Made by a program: the position numbers and the translations under genes. Under the pieces are notes generated by a model. It was given only the letters and a program-made list of their open reading frames with translations, was not told the origin of the DNA and searched no databases. From the sequence record OZ035760.1: a stretch of DNA of 64,000 nt. The stretch is one strand, 5' to 3'. The DNA comes from Tequatrovirus NIC06P2. This document shows, in pieces, positions 20,720-31,345 of the stretch; the stretch's first letter is position 1, and every line of letters starts with the position of its first letter.

Positions 20720-20727
20720 TATAAATA
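20720..20727 (+). promoter_or_regulatory. late promoter TATAAATA upstream of gene 34
   Basis: Exact TATAAATA about 35 nt upstream of the gene 34 ATG, with AGGAG Shine-Dalgarno. Confidence 0.75.
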
Positions 20728-20761: not shown

Positions 20762-23700
20762 ATGGCCGAGATTAAAAGAAAGTTCAGAGCAGAAGATGGT
20801 CTGGACGCAGGTGGCGATAAAATAATCAACGTAGCTTTAGCTGATCGTGCCGTAGGAACTGACGGTGTTAACGTTGATTACCTAATTCAAGAAAACACAG
20901 TTCAACAATACGATCCAACTCGTGGATATTTAAAAGATTTCGTAATCATTTATGATAACCGCTTTTGGGCTGCTATAAATGATATTCCAAAACCAGCAGG
21001 AGCTTTTAATAGCGGACGCTGGAGAGCATTACGTACCGATGCTAACTGGATTACGGTTTCATCTGGTTCATATCAATTAAAATCCGGTGAAGCAATTTCG
21101 GTTAATACTGCAGCTGGAAATGACATCACGTTTACTTTACCATCTTCTCCAATTGATGGTGATACTATCGTTCTCCAAGATATTGGAGGAAAACCCGGAG
21201 TTAACCAAGTTTTAATTGTAGCTCCAGTACAAAGTATTGTAAACTTTAGAGGTGAACAAGTACGTTCAGTACTAATGACTCATCCAAAGTCACAGCTAGT
21301 TTTAATTTTTAGTAATCGTCTGTGGCAAATGTATGTTGCTGATTATAGTAGAGAAGCTGTAATTGTAACACCAGCGAATACTTATCAAGCACAATCAAAC
21401 GATTTTATCGTACGTAGATTTACTTCTGCTGCACCGATTAATATTAAACTTCCAAGATTTGCTAATCATGGCGATATTATTAATTTCGTCGATTTAGATA
21501 AACTAAATCCGCTTTATCATACAATTGTTACTACATACGATGAAACGACTTCAATACAAGAAGTTGGAACTCATTCCATTGAAGGCCGTACAACGATTGA
21601 CGGTTTCTTGATGTTTGATGATAATGAGAAATTGTGGAGATTGTTTGACGGGGATAGTAAAGCGCGTTTACGCATTATAACGACTAATTCTAATATTCGT
21701 CCAAATGAAGAAGTTATGGTATTTGGTGCGAATAACGGAACAACTCAAACAATTGAGCTTAAGCTTCCAACTAATATTTCTGTTGGTGATACTGTTAAAA
21801 TTTCCATGAATTACATGAGAAAAGGACAAACAGTTAAAATCAAAGCTGCTGATGAAGATAAAATTGCTTCTTCAGTTCAATTGCTGCAATTCCCAAAACG
21901 CTCAGAATATCCGCCTGAAGCTGAGTGGGTTACAGTCCAAGAATTAGTTTTTAATGGTGAAACTAATTATGTTCCAGTTTTAGAGCTTGCTTATATAGAA
22001 GATTCTGATGGAAAATACTGGGTTGTACAGCAAAACGTTCCAACTGTAGAAAGAGTAGATTCTTTAAATGATTCTACTAGAGCAAGATTAGGCGTAATTG
22101 CTTTAGCTACACAAGCTCAAGCAAATGTCGATTTAGAAAATTCTCCACAAAAAGAATTAGCAATTACTCCAGAAACGTTAGCTAATCGCACTGCTACTGA
22201 AACTCGCAGAGGTATTGCAAGAATAGCAACTACTGCTCAAGTGAATCAGAACACCACATTCTCTTTTGCAGATGACCTTATCATTACTCCTAAAAAGCTG
22301 AATGAAAGAACTGCTACAGAAACTCGTAGAGGTGTCGCTGAAATTGCTACGCAGCAGGAAACTAATACAGGTACTGATGATACTACAATCATTACTCCTA
22401 AAAAGCTTCAAGCTCGTCAAGGTTCTGAATCATTATCTGGTATTGTAACTTTTGTATCTACTGCAGGTGCTACTCCAGCTTCTAGCCGTGAATTAAATGG
22501 TACGAATGTTTATAATAAAAACACTAATAATTTAGTTGTTTCACCTAAAGCTTTGGATCAGTATAAAGCTACGCCTACTCAACAGGGTGCAGTAATTTTA
22601 GCAGTTGAAAGTGAAGTAATTGCTGGACAAAGTCAGCAAGGATGGGCAAATGCTGTTGTAACGCCAGAAACGTTACATAAAAAGACATCAACTGATGGAA
22701 GAATTGGTTTAATTGAAATTGCTACGCAAAGTGAAGTTAATACAGGAACTGATTATACTCGTGCAGTCACTCCTAAAACTTTAAATGGTCGTAAAGCAAC
22801 TGAAAGTTTAAGTGGTATAGCTGAAATTGCTACACAAGTTGAATTCGACGCAGGCGTCGACGATACTCGTATCTCTACACCATTAAAAATTAAAACCAGA
22901 TTTAATAGTACTGATCGTACTTCTGTTGTTGCTCTATCTGGATTAGTTGAATCAGGAACTCTCTGGGACCATTATACACTTAATATTCTTGAAGCAAATG
23001 AGACACAGCGTGGTACACTTCGTGTAGCTACACAGGTTGAAGCTGCTGCAGGAAAATTAGATAATGTTTTAATAACTCCTAAAAAGCTTTTAGGTACTAA
23101 ATCTACTGAAGCACAAGAAGGTGTTATTAAAGTTGCAACTCAGTCTGAAACTGTGACTGGAACGTCAGCAAATACTGCTGTATCTCCAAAAAATTTAAAA
23201 TGGATTGTGCAGAGTGAACCTACCTGGGCAGCTACTACTGCGATAAGAGGTTTTGTTAAAACTTCATCTGGTTCAATTACGTTCGTTGGTAATGATACGG
23301 TAGGTTCAACACAGCCATTAGAATCATATGAGAAAAATAGCTATGCAATATCACCATATGAATTAAACCGTGTATTAGCAAATTATCTGCCGTTAAAAGC
23401 AAAAGCTGTAGATAGTAATTTATTGGATGGTCTAGATTCATCTCAGTTCATTCGTAGGGATATTGCACAGACGGTTAATGGTTCACTAACCTTAACCCAA
23501 CAAACGAATCTGAGTGCCCCTCTTGTATCATCTAGTACTGCTACGTTTGGTGGTTCAGTTTCGGTAAATACATTAACTATTTCTAAAACTGGAACAGCAG
23601 CTCGTCTGATTTTTGAGAAAGGACCTCAAACTGAAACTAACCCAGCGCAGACGATGACTATCAAAGTTTGGGGAAACCAGTTTAGTGGCAGACCAGATTC

Positions 23701-24631
23701 AACGCGTTCTACTGTATTTGAAGTTGGTGATGAAACATCTCATCACTTTTATTCTCAGCGCAATACAGCTGGAAAGATATTGTTTAATATCAATGGTACT
23801 GTAATGCCGATAGATGTAAATGCTTCTGGTTCATTGAATGCGAATGGCGTTGCAACATTTGGTAATTCAGTTACTGCTAATGGAGAATTTACCAGTAAAT
23901 CAGCAAATGCTTTTAGAGCAATAAATGGAAATTACGGATTCTTTATTCGTAATGCTGGTAATGACACCTATTTTATGCTCACTGCAGCCGGTGATCAGTT
24001 TGGTGGATTTAATGGATTACGTCCATTATCAATTAATAATCAATCCGGTCAAGTTACAATTGGTGAAGGGCTTATCATTAGTAAAGGTGGAGCAACAATT
24101 AACAGCGGTGGTTTAACTGTTAACTCGAGAATTCGTTCTCAGGGTACTAAAACATCTGATTTATATACCCGTGCGCCAACATCTGATACTGTAGGATTCT
24201 GGTCAATCGATATTAACGATTCAGCCACTTATAACCAGTTCCCAGGTTATTTTAAAATGGTTGAAAAAACTAATGAAGTGACTGGGCTTCCATACTTAGA
24301 ACGTGGCGAAGAAGTTAAATCTCCTGGTACATTGACTCAGTTTGGTAACACACTTGATTCGCTTTACCAAGATTGGATTACTTATCCAACGACGCCAGAA
24401 GCGCGTACCACTCGCTGGACACGTACCTGGCAGAAAACCAAAAACTCTTGGTCAAGTTTTGTTCAGGTATTTGACGGAGGTAACCCTCCTCAACCATCTG
24501 ATATCGGTGCTTTACCATCTGATAATGCTACAATGGGAAATCTTACTATTCGTGATTTCTTACGAATTGGTAATGTTCGCATTGTTCCTGACCCAGTGAA
24601 TAAATCTGTTAAATTTGAATGGGTTGAATAA
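20762..24631 (+). CDS. 34: long tail fibre proximal subunit gp34 (1289 aa)
   Basis: T4 gp34 length; internal repeats of the ATxxETxxG...IATQ...GTD...ITPKKL type; first gene of the 34-38 late cluster. Confidence 0.95.
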   Translation: MAEIKRKFRAEDGLDAGGDKIINVALADRAVGTDGVNVDYLIQENTVQQYDPTRGYLKDFVIIYDNRFWAAINDIPKPAGAFNSGRWRALRTDANWITVSSGSYQLKSGEAISVNTAAGNDITFTLPSSPIDGDTIVLQDIGGKPGVNQVLIVAPVQSIVNFRGEQVRSVLMTHPKSQLVLIFSNRLWQMYVADYSREAVIVTPANTYQAQSNDFIVRRFTSAAPINIKLPRFANHGDIINFVDLDKLNPLYHTIVTTYDETTSIQEVGTHSIEGRTTIDGFLMFDDNEKLWRLFDGDSKARLRIITTNSNIRPNEEVMVFGANNGTTQTIELKLPTNISVGDTVKISMNYMRKGQTVKIKAADEDKIASSVQLLQFPKRSEYPPEAEWVTVQELVFNGETNYVPVLELAYIEDSDGKYWVVQQNVPTVERVDSLNDSTRARLGVIALATQAQANVDLENSPQKELAITPETLANRTATETRRGIARIATTAQVNQNTTFSFADDLIITPKKLNERTATETRRGVAEIATQQETNTGTDDTTIITPKKLQARQGSESLSGIVTFVSTAGATPASSRELNGTNVYNKNTNNLVVSPKALDQYKATPTQQGAVILAVESEVIAGQSQQGWANAVVTPETLHKKTSTDGRIGLIEIATQSEVNTGTDYTRAVTPKTLNGRKATESLSGIAEIATQVEFDAGVDDTRISTPLKIKTRFNSTDRTSVVALSGLVESGTLWDHYTLNILEANETQRGTLRVATQVEAAAGKLDNVLITPKKLLGTKSTEAQEGVIKVATQSETVTGTSANTAVSPKNLKWIVQSEPTWAATTAIRGFVKTSSGSITFVGNDTVGSTQPLESYEKNSYAISPYELNRVLANYLPLKAKAVDSNLLDGLDSSQFIRRDIAQTVNGSLTLTQQTNLSAPLVSSSTATFGGSVSVNTLTISKTGTAARLIFEKGPQTETNPAQTMTIKVWGNQFSGRPDSTRSTVFEVGDETSHHFYSQRNTAGKILFNINGTVMPIDVNASGSLNANGVATFGNSVTANGEFTSKSANAFRAINGNYGFFIRNAGNDTYFMLTAAGDQFGGFNGLRPLSINNQSGQVTIGEGLIISKGGATINSGGLTVNSRIRSQGTKTSDLYTRAPTSDTVGFWSIDINDSATYNQFPGYFKMVEKTNEVTGLPYLERGEEVKSPGTLTQFGNTLDSLYQDWITYPTTPEARTTRWTRTWQKTKNSWSSFVQVFDGGNPPQPSDIGALPSDNATMGNLTIRDFLRIGNVRIVPDPVNKSVKFEWVE
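22150..23200 (+). repeat. in-frame imperfect tandem repeats within gene 34 (about 40-aa units)
   Basis: DNA motifs attactcctaaaaagct (22283, 22391, 23077) and actgctac[t/a]gaaactcg[c/t]agaggt (22190, 22311) recur; the protein repeats are visible. Confidence 0.6.
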
Positions 24632-24639
24632 GAGGTATT

Positions 24640-25755
24640 ATGGAAAAATTTATGGCAGAGTTTGGACAAGGATATGTCCAAACGCCATTTTTATCGGAAA
24701 GCAATTCAGTAAGATACAAAATAAGTATAGCGGGTTCTTGCCCGCTTTCTACAGCAGGACCATACGTTAAATTTCAGGATAATCCTATCGGAAATCAAAC
24801 ATTTAGCGCAGGCCTTCATTTAAGAGTTTTTGACCCTTCCACCGGAGCATTAGTTGATAGTAAGTCATATGCTTTTTCGACTTCAAATGATACTACATCA
24901 GCTGCTTTTGTTAGTTTCATGAATTCTTTGACGAATAATCGAATTGTTGCTATATTAACTAACGGAAAGGTTAATTTTCCTCCTGAAGTAGTATCTTGGT
25001 TAAGAACCGCCGGAACGTCTGCCTTTCCATCTGATTCCATATTGTCAAGATTCGACGTATCATATGCTGCTTTTTACACTTCTTCTAAAAGAGCTATTGC
25101 ATTAGAGCATGTTAAACTGAGTAATAGAAAAAGCACAGATGACTATCAAACTATTTTAGATGTTGTATTTGACAGTTTAGAAGATGTTGGAGCTACCGGG
25201 TTTCCAAGAAGAACGTATGAAAGCGTTGAGCAATTTATGTCAGCGGTTGGTGGAACTAATAACGAAATTGCGCGTCTACCAACTTCAGCTGCTATAAGTA
25301 AATTATCTGATTATAATTTAGTTCCTGGTGATGTTCTTTATCTTAAAACACAACTATACGCTGACGCTGATTTACTTGCTCTTGGAACTACAAATATATC
25401 TATCCGTTTTTATAATTCATCTAATGGATATATTTCCTCGACACATGCTGAATTTACTGGACAAGCTGGTGTTTGGGAATTAAAGGAAGATTATGTAGTT
25501 GTTCCAGAAAACGCAGTAGGATTTACGATATATGCACAAAGAACTGCACAAGCTGGCCAAGGTGGCATGAGAAATTTAAGCTTTTCTGAGGTGTCAAGAA
25601 ATGGTAGTATTTCGAAACCCGCTGAATTTGGCGTCAATGGTATTCGAGTTAATTATGTCTGTGAATCCGCTTCACCTCCGGATATAATGGTACTTCCTAC
25701 ACAAGCATCGTCTAAAACTGGTAAAGTGTTTGGGCAAGAATTTAGAGAAGTATAA
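24640..25755 (+). CDS. 35: long tail fibre hinge connector gp35 (371 aa)
   Basis: Size and position immediately after gene 34. Confidence 0.9.
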   Translation: MEKFMAEFGQGYVQTPFLSESNSVRYKISIAGSCPLSTAGPYVKFQDNPIGNQTFSAGLHLRVFDPSTGALVDSKSYAFSTSNDTTSAAFVSFMNSLTNNRIVAILTNGKVNFPPEVVSWLRTAGTSAFPSDSILSRFDVSYAAFYTSSKRAIALEHVKLSNRKSTDDYQTILDVVFDSLEDVGATGFPRRTYESVEQFMSAVGGTNNEIARLPTSAAISKLSDYNLVPGDVLYLKTQLYADADLLALGTTNISIRFYNSSNGYISSTHAEFTGQAGVWELKEDYVVVPENAVGFTIYAQRTAQAGQGGMRNLSFSEVSRNGSISKPAEFGVNGIRVNYVCESASPPDIMVLPTQASSKTGKVFGQEFREV

Positions 25756-25786: not shown

Positions 25787-25794
25787 TATAAATA
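25787..25794 (+). promoter_or_regulatory. late promoter TATAAATA upstream of gene 36
   Basis: Exact TATAAATA about 24 nt upstream of the gene 36 ATG. Confidence 0.75.
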
Positions 25795-25817: not shown

Positions 25818-26507
25818 ATGGCTGATTTAAAAGTAGGTTCAACAACTGGAGGCTCTGTCATTTGGCATCAAGGAAATTTTCCATTGAATCCAGCCGGTGA
25901 CGATGTACTCTATAAATCATTTAAAATATATTCAGAATATAACAAACCACAAGCTGCTGATAACGATTTCGTTTCTAAAGCTAATGGTGGCACAGATTCT
26001 CAAGGTTTCCAAAAAGAAGTAGAATTTAAAAAAGGTGTTAAGATTTCTGCAACGTTTTCTGGCGGTTCAAACCTGAATGGGTTATATTCTGGCAATGGAG
26101 ATGGAGCTTCCAGAGAAAAAGCTAACATGGATTTACGTTCATGGTACGGCATTGGTATTTGGAACTCATGCACAGGTGATGGGATCCAGGGACGCACAAT
26201 CTGGTTTAATGTCAGGCGTGGTACAGTTGAAACACTTGGCGATATTGTTTCGGGCAAACAAGTTATTTCTAATGCTTCAGGACCGACCGGCCCAGCACAC
26301 TTAACTCGCAAAGATTATGTTGATGGAGCAATAAATAATGTTACAGCAAATGCGAACTCTAGAGTGTTGCGTTCTGGTGACACTATGACAGGTAATTTAA
26401 CGGCGCCAAACTTTTTCTCGCAGAATCCCGCATCTCAACCTTCACATGTTCCACGATTTGACCAAATCGTAATTAAGGATTCTGTTCAAGATTTCGGCTA
26501 TTATTAA
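25818..26507 (+). CDS. 36: long tail fibre distal connector gp36 (229 aa)
   Basis: Position and size; shares the GDTM(T/S)GNLT motif with the gp37 N-terminal region. Confidence 0.9.
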
Positions 26508-26515
26508 GAGGACTT

Positions 26516-29500
26516 ATGGCTACTTTAAAACAAATACAATTTAAAAGAAGCAAAACCGCAGGTGCACGTCCTGCTGCTTCAGTATTAGCCGAAGGTGAAT
26601 TGGCTATAAACTTAAAAGATAGAACAATTTTTACTAAAGATGATTCAGGAAATATCATTGATTTAGGTATTGCTAAAGGCGGCCAGGTTGATGGTGATGT
26701 GACTATCAATGGTAAATTAACATTAAATGGCGCGTATGTTCAGACGCTGGCTGGTATTAATACTACGGGTGGTATTAATTCTGGGGCCGCTATAAGTGCA
26801 ACAACTTATTATGCTCGGTCTGGTTCTTTTTATGCTCGTGCTCCAGATGCCAATGCGAATACACATGTTTGGTTTGAAAATAACAATGGTATAGAACGTG
26901 GTGTGATTTGGGCTGTTCCGAACACTTCAGACCTAGGCTCGGTACGTATTCGAGCAAAAACCACAGGCGGTGTTTTCGCCGGCGAGTACAGTTTCCGCTC
27001 TGATGGCCGATTTGATGTTCCTGTAGCAGTTAAAATCGGCGGAGCAGCGATGCTAACCAAAGATGGCAACATTACCTCTGGTTCTATGTTTGGCGGTAAC
27101 CTTAACAACTATTTGACTTCTATTAAAAATGACATTGTTGCTGGTGATAATAAGAAAGTAAGTAAAACCGGTGACACGATGTCCGGCAACTTGACTATTA
27201 ACGCTAACTTAAAAGTCGAAAACTCTAATGGAACGTTTGTTGATTTAGGTTCAGAGAACTCTGATAAGTATAGCAGATTAACTCTTGCTCGTAAAATTGG
27301 CGATGGCGCTGGTGTAGCAATGCTTAAAGTTACTCCTGAAGGAAACGTGCAATTTGGTTATCAACCTACAGTTGCTACTCCATCTCCTACCAAGTATATT
27401 CTAATTAAACCTAACGGTCTTGAAGTAGAAGGTGATTTAGTTTTTAAGCAAACTTATCGTGGTGTTGAAGAAGCATTTGATATTACTGATCAGACTATTG
27501 ACCTTAATAGCCTTATTATTAGAGGATCAGATTTAGGTACTCGTAAGCTGTATAAATGCAGATCATCTGGAGGTGGTTCTAATATATTGAACAAACCTAC
27601 ATCTGACGGCAACTTTACTCTTGAAGTTCTGTCTTTACGCAAGGTTTCTGATACCGATTGGTCATGTAAGCAGACCTTTACTACAAAGAACAATAATGTT
27701 GTAGGCGTATATGTTCGCTACGGGCAAGGCGGCTCATGGTCTGCATGGCAAGAAGTTGTATCTGGCGTTCAGCCAATTAATTTAGGTGGTACTGGAGCAA
27801 CTTCTGCAGCTGCTGCCCGTAATAACCTTGGTGTTGGTGCAGGCCAAACTGTAACATTCGGTAATTTAGTTACCACCGATTTAACTGCAAACGGAAACGT
27901 TAGATTAGTTGGAAGACTGAACTTTGGTTCTAATTCTCAGTCGGCTGGTGTATTACGCGCCAACGAAGGTGGGGCTGTTGTTTTAAGTTCTGCAAGTGGT
28001 GCAAACATCCACATCAGAGCGGGCGGCGATACTTCTACTGGTGAAACTCGCTTTGAGCCAAATGGCAACGTTGTAGTTGGTGGAGCTATTACAACATCTC
28101 AGCGTATTACAGTTAATGCTGCCACCGATGCTATTGTTGTTAACGCTCCAACTCAAGCATCATCCAACTATATTCAGGGTCGTAAAGCTGGTGTCGCTAA
28201 ATGGTATGTCGGCATTGGCGATGATGGTGATGCAGTACGTCTACATAACAATGTATATTACCATGGTATTGGATTGAGCGCTGATACTGTCGATATTACC
28301 AAGCCTCTTAAAGTCGGAAATGCCAAACTAGGAACTGATGGTAATATCACCGGTGGTTCTGGCAATTTTTCTAACTTGAACACAACATTAAACCGTAAAG
28401 TTAATGTTGGTACATGGTCAGGTGTTGATAAAGTAGTAGGTTGGTACTGGTACAAATTTGCTACTGTAACAATGCCACAATCTGCATCTACCGCGCGTTT
28501 CAAAATTATCGGCGGGAATGGTTATAATGCTAATGCTCCTGAACAAGCATCTGTAAGTGAAATTGTTCTTAGAACTGGTAATAATAATCCTAAATCTATT
28601 AATGCGGTGCTGTGGTCTAGCACTAGTACCGGCCCGTCAAACATTGCTACAGTGAATACATCTGGCGATAATTATGATGTATATGTATACATGGGCAATT
28701 TTGCCCAATCTTTATTGGTTGAATATGATGCTACAGATACTCGTTATATTTCGGTAATCGGTCTTAATGGTGCATCTCAATCACCGGTAGAAGAGCTTCC
28801 TGTGAATAATGTTAAAGGTCGTGTTTTTAAACTTCTTAATAACAGCTCGGGTGTTTTTGATGCAGATAGTTCTAATATTTCTACAAACGCAACTTTTGTG
28901 GCAAATACTCCTTTAGGATTCCGTCACAAATCTAACGGCGACGAAAGTGGCTCTGCCGCTACTCTGCTTTATAATGATGGTACTACGTTCCACATATTAT
29001 TAACAGATAAAAATACCAATACTGATAGAACTAAAGCCTCTGGTTCTTATAATAGCTTGAGACCTTTTTCTATCGATATCGCTTCAGGTAAAGTAACTAT
29101 TTCACACTCTATGAGCGTTTTTGGGGTATCAGAGTTTTATACTGGCCTTAACATCAAAAATAATGGAATTAACTTTGATAAGTCTGGTGCTAACCCGAGA
29201 AACATGAGAATATTCCATGCCGGAGATGCCACACGTGGTAACCGTATTGAAATTGCTGATGATTCAAGTTATTTGGTTTATTTCCAACGTTTACCGGGCG
29301 GCGCTAACCAGTGTACATTTAACTCTGCTGCTCTTTCTGGTATAACACAGACTAACTCTTTTGGTATTAATACAACAAATGCATGGGGTGGTAACTCAAT
29401 TACAATAGGTGATAACGATACTGGTTTTAGACAAGTAGGCGATGGGCTTTTAGAAGCGTGGGCGAACAATGTTAAAGTTGTTAGATTCACCTCAGGTGAA

Positions 29501-29845
29501 GTTTATTCCGAGAAAAACGTCAACGCTCCTAATGTTTACATTCGTTCTGATGTTCGCTTGAAATCTAATTTCAAACCTATTAAAAATGCGCTCGAAAGGG
29601 TTGAGCAACTTGATGGTTTAATCTATGACAAAGCTGAATATATAGGCGGTGAACCTGCTCAAACAGAAGCGGGTATTATAGCTCAAACGTTGCAAGACGT
29701 TTTACCAGAAGCAGTCCGTGAATCAGAAGACAGCAAGGGTAATAAAATACTCACTGTTTCTTCTCAAGCCCAGATTGCTCTTCTGGTTGAAGCTGTGAAA
29801 ACACTTTCTTCTCGTGTAAAAGAACTTGAATCTAAACTTATGTAA
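26516..29845 (+). CDS. 37: long tail fibre distal subunit gp37 with C-terminal intramolecular chaperone domain (1109 aa)
   Basis: Position; the C-terminal 98 aa (from DVRLKSNF...) show the peptidase S74 autochaperone motif (...NAL..V..L.G..Y...E.......TE.G.IAQ....VLPEAV). Confidence 0.9.
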
Positions 29846-29846
29846 A

Positions 29847-29864
29847 AGAGGGCTTCGGCCCTCT
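29847..29864 (+). other. stable UUCG-loop hairpin between genes 37 and 38
   Basis: agagggc-uucg-gcccucu directly after the gene 37 stop; not followed by a clean U-run. Confidence 0.45.
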
Positions 29865-29875
29865 AAGGATTTTTA

Positions 29876-30658
29876 ATGGCAATTGTAGGTGTTCCTGGCT
29901 GGATTGGTGAATCTGCCGTGAATGAAACTGGACAACGTTGGATGGATGCTGCAATGAGAGCAGTTCGTGTTTCAGTTCCCGGTTGGATGAGCTCAATGGC
30001 TGGACAATCTAAAGAAATTATTCACACGCTTGGAGCAGACCATAACTTCAATGGTCAATGGTTCCGAGATAGGTGTTTTGAGGCAGGTAGTACACCTATA
30101 GTGTTTAATATTACAGGTGATTTAGTATCATATTCTAAAGATGTTCCTTTATTCTTCATGTATGGAGATACACCGAATGAATATGTTCAGTTGAATATAC
30201 ACGGCGTAACGATGTATGGACGTGGCGGTAATGGCGGTAGCAATAGTCCTGGCTCAGCTGGAGGTCATTGTATTCAAAATGATATTGGTGGGAGACTAAG
30301 AATTAATAATGGTGGAGCTATTGCTGGCGGCGGCGGTGGCGGTGGCGGCGGATATTATTCTCCTTTTTCACAAATGAGATTGACCTTTGGCGGCGGTGGC
30401 GGTCGTCCTTTTGGTGCGCCAGGCGGATCTATTGATATGCAATCAGGCGCGACTGGTGGTACTATTTCTGCACCTGGCTCAGGATCCGTGAATGGTATCT
30501 ATAATGGCGGAAACGGTGGTGAAGTAGGTTCCGCGGGAGGTAGATGCAATATTCGCGGTCAAGGATCTGAATATAATGGCGGCGCTGCTGGTTATGCTGT
30601 CATAGGGTCCGCTCCAACGTGGCAAAATGTTGGAGCAATATATGGTCCAAGAGTATAA
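29876..30658 (+). CDS. 38: gp38 tail-fibre tip adhesin, T2-type (260 aa; glycine-rich motifs)
   Basis: Multiple poly-Gly motifs ([39 protein letters not shown]) separated by variable segments; follows gene 37. Confidence 0.85.
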
Positions 30659-30688: not shown

Positions 30689-31345
30689 ATGGCAGCACCT
30701 AGAATATCATTTTCGCCCTCTGATATTCTATTTGGTGTTCTAGATCGCTTGTTCAAAGATAATGCTACCGGGAAAGTTCTTGCTTCCCGGGTAGCTGTCG
30801 TAATTCTTTTGTTTATAATGGCGATTGTTTGGTATAGGGGAGATAGTTTCTTTGAGTACTATAAGCAATCAAAGTATGAAACATACAGCGAAATTATTGA
30901 AAAGGAAAGAAATGCACGCTTTGAATCTGTCGCCCTGGAACAACTCCAGATAGTTCATATATCATCTGAGGCAGACTTTAGTGCGGTGTATTCTTTCCGC
31001 CCTAAAAACTTAAACTATTTTGTTGATATTATAGCATACGAAGGAAAATTACCTTCAACAATAAGCGAAAAATCACTTGGAGGATATCCTGTTGATAAAA
31101 CTATGGATGAATATGCAGTTCATTTAAATGGACGTCATTATTATTCCGACTCAAAATTTGCTTTTTTACCAACTAAAAAGCCTACTCCCGAAATAAACTA
31201 CATGTACAGTTGTCCATATTTTAATTTGGATAATATCTATGCTGGAACGATAACCATGTACTGGTATAGAAATGATCATATAAGTAATGACCGCCTTGAA
31301 TCAATATGTGCTCAGGCGGCCAGAATATTAGGAAGGGCTAAATAA
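30689..31345 (+). CDS. t: holin T (218 aa)
   Basis: Matches T4 holin: short cytoplasmic N-terminus, single TM segment (VAVVILLFIMAIVW), large periplasmic domain. Confidence 0.95.
   Translation: MAAPRISFSPSDILFGVLDRLFKDNATGKVLASRVAVVILLFIMAIVWYRGDSFFEYYKQSKYETYSEIIEKERNARFESVALEQLQIVHISSEADFSAVYSFRPKNLNYFVDIIAYEGKLPSTISEKSLGGYPVDKTMDEYAVHLNGRHYYSDSKFAFLPTKKPTPEINYMYSCPYFNLDNIYAGTITMYWYRNDHISNDRLESICAQAARILGRAK

Follow-up and report, generated by a model that had tools for sequence, protein, structure and literature searches.

A mosaic T2/S16-type long-tail-fibre tip module with predicted Tsx-type receptor loops in Tequatrovirus NIC06P2

Introduction

The gp37–gp38 tip complex of phage S16 (PDB 6F45; Dunne et al. 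2018) is known from the descriptions of it given in PMC6851490 and PMC7917993. The cleavage site of S16 gp37 has been defined experimentally as DLNVS^SDRRIKK, and once gp37 is cleaved the strand equivalent to the NVYIR strand described below is the docking surface for gp38 (PMC7917993). The gp37 proteins of T2 and T6 are also processed at the C-terminus (Drexler 1986, as cited in PMC3157838). T2 gp37 is incompatible with PP01 gp38, and swapping in the N-terminal 113 aa from T2 rescues the combination (PMC12892980). Several receptors are on record for this group of adhesins. CM8 is Tsx/HepI-dependent by RB-TnSeq (bioRxiv 10.64898/2026.04.02.716166), and RB14 and other T6-like adhesins use Tsx (PMC3157838). 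Homologous recombination at the Gly-codon runs of g38 has already been published (Trojet 2011, PMC3157838), and the same mechanism is attributed to Tetart 1998 where that work is cited in PMC3157838.

Chaperone domains of the S74 kind are likewise found in endosialidases, the T5 L-shaped fibre and MYRF. The roles of the Ser/Lys dyad in S74 chaperones are reportedly those set out by Schulz et al. 2010 and Garcia-Doval et al. 2015.

Here, we compare the g37–g38 locus of Tequatrovirus NIC06P2 with these systems. It very probably encodes a long-tail-fibre tip module of the T2/S16 type, with an autocleaving gp37, a gp38 adhesin carried in the virion, Tsx-type loops and a mosaic cassette structure, and we found no sequence evidence against this reading.

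Results and discussion

The g37–g38 locus

The window examined is a stretch of 64,000 nucleotides of a Tequatrovirus genome (OZ035760.1), and all features described are on its plus strand. Gene 37 (26516–29845) encodes the 1109 aa distal long-tail-fibre subunit and was assigned from its ORF, Pfam and a structure-sequence match. Gene 38 (29876–30658), assigned from its ORF, Pfam and PDB matches, encodes a predicted monomeric tail-fibre-tip adhesin of 260 aa. Upstream are g34, g35 and g36, and downstream are holin t and asiA. A gap of 30 nt separates the two genes, so placing g38 immediately 3′ of the chaperone-ended g37. At 90% identity, the exact gp37 protein clusters with no other sequence, and the exact gp38 protein clusters with T6 gp38.

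A motif search with TATAAATA, the consensus of T4-type late promoters, gave one copy 5′ of g36, at 25787–25794, and another at 20720, ahead of g34. The g36 copy is the likely start of a g36-g37-g38 late transcript on the suggestive evidence of its placement; the seven copies in the window are not above chance. A late promoter directly 5′ of g38 was considered and rejected, as the search placed copies before g34 and g36 only among these genes. Folding placed a GC hairpin, capped by a UUCG loop, between the two genes (29847–29864), where it abuts the Shine-Dalgarno of g38 on its 5′ side (AAGGA; 29865–29869). Its energy of −13.4 kcal/mol (z=−1.9) is not significant by itself. The hairpin is conserved in all tip types with differing stem sequences, and because the structure is conserved across loci it is retained here, as a side note.

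The C-terminal chaperone domain of gp37

The last 99 aa of gp37 (Ser1011–Met1109; 29546–29842) make up an intramolecular chaperone/autoprotease domain at the extreme C-terminus of the protein. Peptidase_S74 (PF13884) matches aa 1011–1068 (E=1.8e-14; 54.2 bits versus a cutoff of 22) over profile positions 1–58 of 58, and the domain also matches the chaperone domain of S16 gp37 (6F45_A) and the S74-like domain of MYRF (7DC3). An S74-type chaperone had been recognised here in an earlier sequence-only reading, and the PF13884 match together with the Ser1011/Lys1016 motif bears this out. That reading began a domain of approximately 98 aa at 29549; the domain stands, but Ser1011 is at 29546, one codon earlier, and the released piece would therefore be 99 aa, not 98.

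The motif at the domain boundary is NVYIR^SDVRLK, in which Ser1011 (29546–29548) and Lys1016 (29561–29563) are the predicted catalytic dyad, with the cut predicted between Arg1010 and Ser1011. VY[IV]R-SDxRxK was present wherever it was readable in related loci (22/22), and the motif aligns with the S16 cleavage site. S16 gp37 likewise has an autocleaving C-terminal chaperone with an S-D-x-R-x-K motif, but its chaperone domain is 113 aa and its pre-cut residue is Ser rather than Arg. The endosialidase, T5 and MYRF chaperones share the full PF13884 domain and the Ser...Lys dyad with its 5-residue spacing. Their upstream fibre domains are unrelated, and cleavage here is predicted to make a docking site for an adhesin, not to expose a final receptor-binding tip.

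Preceding the chaperone is the gp37 distal tip (aa 755–1010; 28778–29545), which ends in the β-strand NVYIR and is approximately 93% identical to that of KFS-EC3. Residues 955–1107 align with S16 gp37 (6F45_A; E=1.5e-9). The distal end and chaperone are of the same class as those of T2: the final 167 aa are 77% identical and the domain measures 99 aa in both, although T2 gp37 is longer (1341 aa). By analogy with these proteins, we infer that gp37 is cleaved: it would trimerise with the aid of its own C-terminal 99 aa S74 chaperone, which would then cut itself off between Arg1010 and Ser1011 via the Ser1011/Lys1016 dyad and expose the NVYIR β-strand face of the trimer.

The gp37 shaft (aa 1 to approximately 760; 26516–28794) has a different affinity. 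It shares approximately 95% nucleotide identity with Tequatrovirus BCH953P2, which has the arrangement of the type phage T4, where the gp37 C-terminus is the receptor-binding tip and gp38 is an assembly chaperone absent from virions. The shaft identity prompted us to consider a T4-type reading of this locus, which we regard as extremely improbable, as the tip and gp38 belong to different families here. BCH953P2 has a His-box needle domain and a T4-type gp38 of 183 aa; neither that domain nor a gp38 of about that size was found at the locus, where gp37 ends in the S74 domain and gp38 is a 260 aa protein of the PF05268 family. When gp37 was used in a structure-sequence search, only 6F45_A and the T7-like 4A0T were returned; the tip structure of T4 gp37 was not among the matches.

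The gp38 adhesin

The homology of gp38 points to the T2/S16-type module. The protein matches GP38 (PF05268; E=7.3e-72) and Gp38_N (PF21721; E=3.5e-18) in Pfam and, in the PDB, the receptor-binding domain of PP01 gp38 (9V85; E=7.5e-78) and S16 gp38 (6F45_D; E=1.3e-48). The N-terminal attachment domain (aa 1–47; 29876–30016), which corresponds to Gp38_N, contains Trp9, Trp22 and Trp37, and these align with the three anchoring Trp of S16 gp38. Trp9 and Trp22 are invariant in the adhesin alignment, and Trp37 is present in every sequence but that of CM8. The domain is of the T2/FL12/JK38 type, with 46–47 of 47 residues identical (46 in T2, which also has an identical intergenic region). T6, RB14 and CM8 fall into another compatibility class in both proteins: they match this N-domain at just 30–32/47 residues, and the tip and chaperone region of their gp37, in which the chaperone domain is 113 aa, is approximately 41% identical. 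Across 22 loci, which fall into four classes, the type of gp37 tip and chaperone co-varies perfectly with the type of gp38 N-domain, a pattern consistent with the incompatibility observed experimentally between T2 gp37 and PP01 gp38 (PMC12892980).

The remainder of the protein is rich in Gly (24% of gp38 overall, 37% over aa 115–240), with runs of nine (aa 151–159) and five (aa 172–176). In an alignment of nine adhesins the Gly columns are invariant and the segments between them are variable, and the sequence-only description of a 260 aa protein with poly-Gly motifs and variable segments was thus correct. The region of Gly-rich motifs and hypervariable loops (aa ~115–240; 30218–30595) is the predicted receptor-binding domain, for which we infer a polyglycine-II (PGII) sandwich fold from the alignment of aa 39–260 to the sequence of the 9V85 crystal structure. 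S16 gp38 shares the β-helix and the Gly-rich motifs split by variable loops, but it binds Salmonella OmpC and its loop sequences are unrelated to those found here.

In the mechanism proposed, one gp38 monomer would dock on the NVYIR face through its N-terminal three-helix domain, with Trp9, Trp22 and Trp37 as prongs. It would then remain part of the virion and act as its receptor-binding adhesin, with its hypervariable loops carried on the PGII sandwich of Gly-rich motifs. The sequence-only reading had likewise favoured a T2-type over a T4-type architecture, with gp38 as tip adhesin and receptor choice set by the loops between the Gly motifs, and strong homology to characterised systems argues for both proposals.

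Receptor prediction

An alignment with known adhesins had been suggested as a way to predict the receptor, and it gave a clear match. Over aa 48–260, which includes all of the hypervariable loops, gp38 is identical to CM8 at 211/213 positions and to RB14 at 210/213. The two substitutions that separate it from CM8 are T73A and N234D, of which only N234D is in a loop. HVS1–4 match the segments of the Tsx-dependent adhesins, as in the Tsx-specific T6-like subgroup. As the loops are those of T6, RB14 and CM8, we predict the nucleoside channel Tsx as the primary E. coli receptor.

The same architecture could serve a different primary receptor, namely OmpA (as for M1 and FL12), OmpF/FadL (T2-like) or OmpC (S16/PP01-like). 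OmpA specificity was weighed because no other DNA match was as good overall as that to FL12, and because M1, also an OmpA phage, gave an 88% partial hit. The N-terminal 159 aa of gp38 are identical to those of FL12, which is OmpA-dependent (PMC12032242), and OmpA type 1 adhesins are phylogenetically near the Tsx group (PMC12032242). However, comparison by segment argues against it. From HVS2 onwards gp38 diverges from FL12 (112/144 identical; aa 121–260), M1 (102/145) and T2 (71/146), the last of which targets FadL/OmpF, and aa 121–260 instead match the Tsx-dependent CM8 (139/140) and T6 (136/140), as well as RB14 (138/140). An engineered swap from HVS2 onwards is sufficient to change Tsx to OmpA specificity (bioRxiv 10.64898/2026.04.02.716166). 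Thus, we consider another primary receptor very unlikely. The prediction of Tsx carries a caveat, because single loop substitutions can switch receptor, as Q206L does in RB68 (OmpF to OmpW; bioRxiv 10.64898/2026.04.02.716166), and two substitutions separate this gp38 from that of CM8. The receptor may also vary with the host: on Yersinia, fPS-65, whose T6-like gp38 is 93% identical, relies on the inner-core heptose of LPS (PMC7917993). The gp38 of KarlGJung and Paracelsus are also 93% identical to the one described here, and the receptor requirements of PST, which has a T6-like gp38, are more complex (PMC3157838).

Mosaic structure and recombination junctions

Two junctions were located in the module. 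In g37, similarity to BCH953P2 stops and similarity to KFS-EC3 starts at a motif encoding SPVEELP (28778–28794); by alignment, the BCH953P2 match extends to query position 2279 and the KFS-EC3 match begins at 2263. The second junction is in g38, at a Gly-codon run (30314–30336). To its left 59/60 informative sites are FL12-like, and to its right 109/110 are CM8-like. FL12 is essentially identical in DNA sequence from the end of g37 through approximately gp38 aa 150, but diverges from the Gly-codon run onwards, in HVS2–4, and thus provides a natural parallel to the CM8xEV240 swap, engineered from Tsx to OmpA use (bioRxiv 10.64898/2026.04.02.716166). Judged by these alignments, the module is a recombinational mosaic: its gp37 shaft is common to a phage with a T4-type tip, the rest of gp37 (tip and chaperone domain) and the N-domain of gp38 are of the T2 type, and the receptor loops are of the T6 type.

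The Gly-codon run

The nine Gly codons of GRM3 (aa 151–159) are an interrupted GGC/GGT/GGA tract, GGC GGC GGC GGT GGC GGT GGC GGC GGA. The run had been noted previously at 30331–30355; it is real, but lies at 30326–30352. It had also been proposed as a slippage-prone contingency tract, where changes in length would frequently generate host-range variants. The tract does have a period of 3 across 30326–30351, and among near-identical T6-like alleles the sole internal indels are in Gly-codon runs. PYps32T, a Yersinia isolate, has three additional codons (GGV) in GRM3, D5505 has lost one Gly codon from GRM4, and a 51 nt duplication in L011 is bordered by Gly runs. Against this, synonymous GGT and GGA codons break the tract, leaving (GGC)3 as the longest perfect run, and TRF gave a score of 38 (period 3, 82% matches), which is below the usual threshold of 50. 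Of 13 alleles compared, drawn from the T6-, M1-, FL12- and JK38-like groups, 12 have nine Gly despite heavy synonymous shuffling of GGC and GGT, and this constancy implies selection on length. Furthermore, the PGII core of the structure is built from Gly-rich motifs (PMC6851490), the deletion analysis related in PMC3157838 found single GRMs and HVSs to be essential, and host-range changes on record map to the loops. Apart from the rare indels in PYps32T and D5505, then, little of the slippage proposal stands, and a contingency tract is highly unlikely. The Gly-codon run looks more like a recombination site, of a kind already documented.

A broader proposal is that host range is repeatedly altered in nature by in-frame length changes or unequal exchange where g38 has Gly-codon runs. 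Changes of this kind, such as the additional GGV in PYps32T or the duplicated HVS2 of L011, might re-register PGII helices or duplicate a loop. We consider this unlikely, but if it were true, 30326–30352 would be a hotspot for both recombination and indels, beyond its role as a structural motif.

Conclusions

The module is an ordinary and well-studied kind of host-recognition cassette, carried by a T4-like coliphage, and modules of this kind are already known. Its value is practical rather than conceptual, and it opens no new question. The locus is a clean natural case of whole tip cassettes, T4-type versus T2-type, being swapped on a common gp37 shaft, and it illustrates a second known principle, in which a conserved Gly-codon run is the point where the specificity half of gp38 is swapped. 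The confident prediction of Tsx as receptor and of the gp37–gp38 compatibility class should help phage-cocktail design and adhesin-swap engineering.

Layout of the long-tail-fibre locus

The window is from a Tequatrovirus genome, that of a T4-like coliphage, and phages 96–97% identical to its first 20 kb include vB_Eco_BGP, WilhelmHis and phiD1. The long-tail-fibre locus consists of g34 (20762–24631), g35 (24640–25755), g36 (25818–26507), g37 (26516–29845; 1109 aa) and g38 (29876–30658; 260 aa), followed by the holin gene t (30689–31345) and, on the minus strand, asiA. The T4 late-promoter consensus is found directly 5′ of g34 and g36, but its total copies in the window do not exceed chance. 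Residues 58–127 of the hinge protein gp35 match Pfam ILEI (interleukin-like EMT inducer; PF15711) with E=6.4e-9 and 36.6 bits, which exceeds the curated threshold of 27.

In the g37–g38 spacer, a GC hairpin of 5–7 bp (29847–29864) adjoins the g38 ribosome-binding site on its 5′ side. In the window and 23 related loci, it precedes g38 in every tip class, T4-type included, frequently with a UUCG loop, and the stems vary in sequence while pairing is kept. In T4, stable C(UUCG)G hairpins of a similar kind occur between cistrons.

gp37 and gp38 are of the T2/S16 type

A full-length Peptidase_S74 domain ("chaperone of endosialidase") was found at residues 1011–1068 of gp37 (Pfam, E=1.8e-14). The domain opens with S1011-D-V-R-L-K1016, in which Ser and Lys are arranged as in the S74 family. 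Two further matches were found with the C-terminal 119 aa, one to the chaperone part of S16 gp37 (PDB 6F45_A) and a weaker one to an S74-like domain in myelin regulatory factor (7DC3). The sequence-only reading had recognised this domain, though its start at 29549 is one codon after Ser1011 (29546–29548). In S16, the chaperone domain of trimerised gp37 cuts itself off at DLNVS^SDRRIKK (PMC7917993, PMC6851490), and in T2 and T6, too, gp37 undergoes processing and receives a gp38 cap (PMC3157838, citing Drexler 1986). Taking the S16 work as the model, cleavage at the aligned site, NVYIR^SDVRLK, is predicted to free a 99-aa fragment, Ser1011–Met1109. Every feature that defines S74 chaperones and that sequence can test is present in gp37, with cleavage itself predicted.

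The 260-aa gp38 was confirmed as glycine-rich (24% Gly overall, 37% in residues 115–240, with G9 and G5 runs). Pfam assigns it to GP38 (E=7e-72) and Gp38_N (E=3.5e-18), and two crystal-structure sequences are matched as well, those of S16 gp38 (6F45_D, E=1.3e-48) and of the receptor-binding domain of PP01 gp38 (9V85, E=7.5e-78; PMC12892980). In S16, one gp38 monomer, which carries its hypervariable loops on a polyglycine-II sandwich, is held by the exposed β-strand face of gp37 via three tryptophan prongs (PMC7917993, PMC6851490). These tryptophans align with Trp9, Trp22 and Trp37, and a single gp38 monomer would dock on the cleaved gp37 trimer in the same way. In the gp38 of Shigella phage CM8 (locus L001 of our comparison set), residue 37, the third conserved anchoring Trp elsewhere, is Leu (CLMSQ versus CWMSQ). 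CM8 is nevertheless viable and Tsx-dependent, and the Leu is either a tolerated change or a sequencing error.

A T4-type module would require a receptor-binding gp37 needle and a 183-aa gp38 chaperone. As gp37 lacks the His-box needle and gp38 belongs to a different family, that of the Gp38 adhesins, this was excluded, and the earlier assignment to the T2 type holds. All of the sequence-testable defining features of the T2/S16-type adhesin family are present, and location in the virion is predicted.

The module is a mosaic

No phage record spans at least 80% of the 4.1-kb module, and this exact gp37 stands alone in its cluster. The first 2279 nt of g37 (26516–28794) share 95% nucleotide identity with Tequatrovirus BCH953P2 (OZ035785.1; L030 3001–6621), yet that phage has a T4-type gp37 of 1013 aa, whose C-terminus is a His-box needle tip, and a T4-type gp38 chaperone of 183 aa. 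At 28778–28794, encoding SPVEELP, similarity passes to KFS-EC3, which shares approximately 93% protein identity over gp37 residues ~760–1109. Hence, T4- and T2-type tip cassettes are swapped on one shaft at SPVEELP. Within the shaft, 26864–28093 (g37 nt 349–1578) shares approximately 84% nucleotide identity with the distal tail-fibre genes found in numerous Klebsiella phages, including Mineola, KP182 and PhiKpNIH-6, which suggests a shaft module shared across genera.

Between ~29694 and 30313 the window is virtually identical to FL12, and from 30337 until g38 ends it is virtually identical to CM8 (59/60 informative sites FL12-type to the left, 109/110 CM8-type to the right). The switch falls at 30314–30336, on the 5′ edge of the Gly-codon run, which matches the published proposal (Trojet 2011; Tetart 1998, cited in PMC3157838) that specificity is swapped by crossing over within conserved Gly-rich motifs. 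This natural junction mirrors an engineered CM8×EV240 recombinant, in which exchange from hypervariable segment (HVS) 2 onward alone switched the receptor from Tsx to OmpA (bioRxiv 10.64898/2026.04.02.716166).

Rare rearrangements at Gly-codon runs

The run at 30326–30352 (GGC GGC GGC GGT GGC GGT GGC GGC GGA) had been proposed as slippage-prone and a driver of host-range variation. It is interrupted, with (GGC)3 its longest perfect stretch versus (GGC)8 in FL12, and TRF called it at a relaxed threshold only (score 38). Nine Gly are found in 12 of 13 alleles of the T6/M1/FL12/JK38-like groups, though the GGC/GGT pattern differs in nearly every phage, implying that length is under selection. This fits the role of Gly-rich motifs (GRMs) as PGII helices (PMC6851490) and a published deletion analysis in which individual GRMs and HVSs were essential (PMC3157838).

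The slippage idea does gain some support from near-identical alleles, in which internal indels were confined to Gly-codon runs. Two T6-like alleles, ~93% identical to the window gp38, carry them: Yersinia phage PYps32T (L027 51–842) has three additional codons in the 9-Gly run, GRM3 (GGC GGT/GTC, giving Gly-Gly-Val), and D5505 (L026 51–830) lacks one Gly codon in GRM4 (GGGGGRPFG). In IMGVR_UViG_2974787500_000001 (L011 4501–5334), a 17-aa HVS2 duplication bounded by Gly runs (HVS2 plus the following run in tandem, GGGGG-YYS...TF) extends gp38 to 277 aa, and looks like unequal exchange between two such runs. From these alleles, we conclude that rearrangement at Gly-codon runs occurs but is rare; slippage at high frequency as a driver of host range is not supported.

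gp37 tips pair with gp38 N-domains

When the g37 3′ end and g38 were taken from 23 related loci (GenBank phages and IMG/VR), VY[IV]R-SDxRxK was retained in all 22 with a readable motif. The loci form four classes, given here with their chaperone domain lengths: A (99 aa; T2, FL12, JK38 and the window), B (113 aa; T6, CM8, RB14 and M1), C (111 aa; FL08) and D (105–106 aa; IMG/VR loci L015, L016 and L019). In each, the type of the gp37 tip and chaperone domain corresponds without exception to a single type of gp38 N-domain, as a physical gp37–gp38 interface predicts and in agreement with the finding that PP01 gp38 functions on T2 gp37 only with the T2 N-terminal 113 aa (PMC12892980). The record of Shigella phage JK38 (L010 353–4844) annotates two overlapping CDS (906 and 594 aa) for gp37, owing either to a frameshift or an error in sequencing, or to a distal fibre gene that is truly split.

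Tsx is the predicted receptor

For receptor prediction, nine adhesins were aligned and scored segment by segment. Residues 1–47 of gp38 are identical to FL12 and JK38 (47/47) and nearly so to T2 (46/47), while residues 48–260 match CM8 at 211/213 positions (differences T73A and N234D) and RB14 at 210/213. Over residues 121–260, identity is 136/140 with T6, versus 112/144 with FL12 (OmpA), 102/145 with M1 (OmpA) and 71/146 with T2 (FadL/OmpF), and the exact protein clusters with T6 gp38 at 90% identity. CM8 depends on Tsx/HepI in RB-TnSeq (bioRxiv 10.64898/2026.04.02.716166), and RB14 and other T6-like adhesins need Tsx (PMC3157838). Given this near-identity to the CM8, RB14 and T6 adhesins, we predict that, on E. 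coli, Tsx serves as the primary receptor. The prediction is tempered by the ability of single loop changes to switch receptor (RB68 Q206L, OmpF to OmpW; bioRxiv 10.64898/2026.04.02.716166) and by the different behaviour on Yersinia of phages with a T6-like adhesin (PMC7917993, PMC3157838).

Published work already covers this architecture and its mechanism, as well as what the hypervariable loops do and recombination at Gly motifs; the module described here is of a known kind, with a new combination of alleles.
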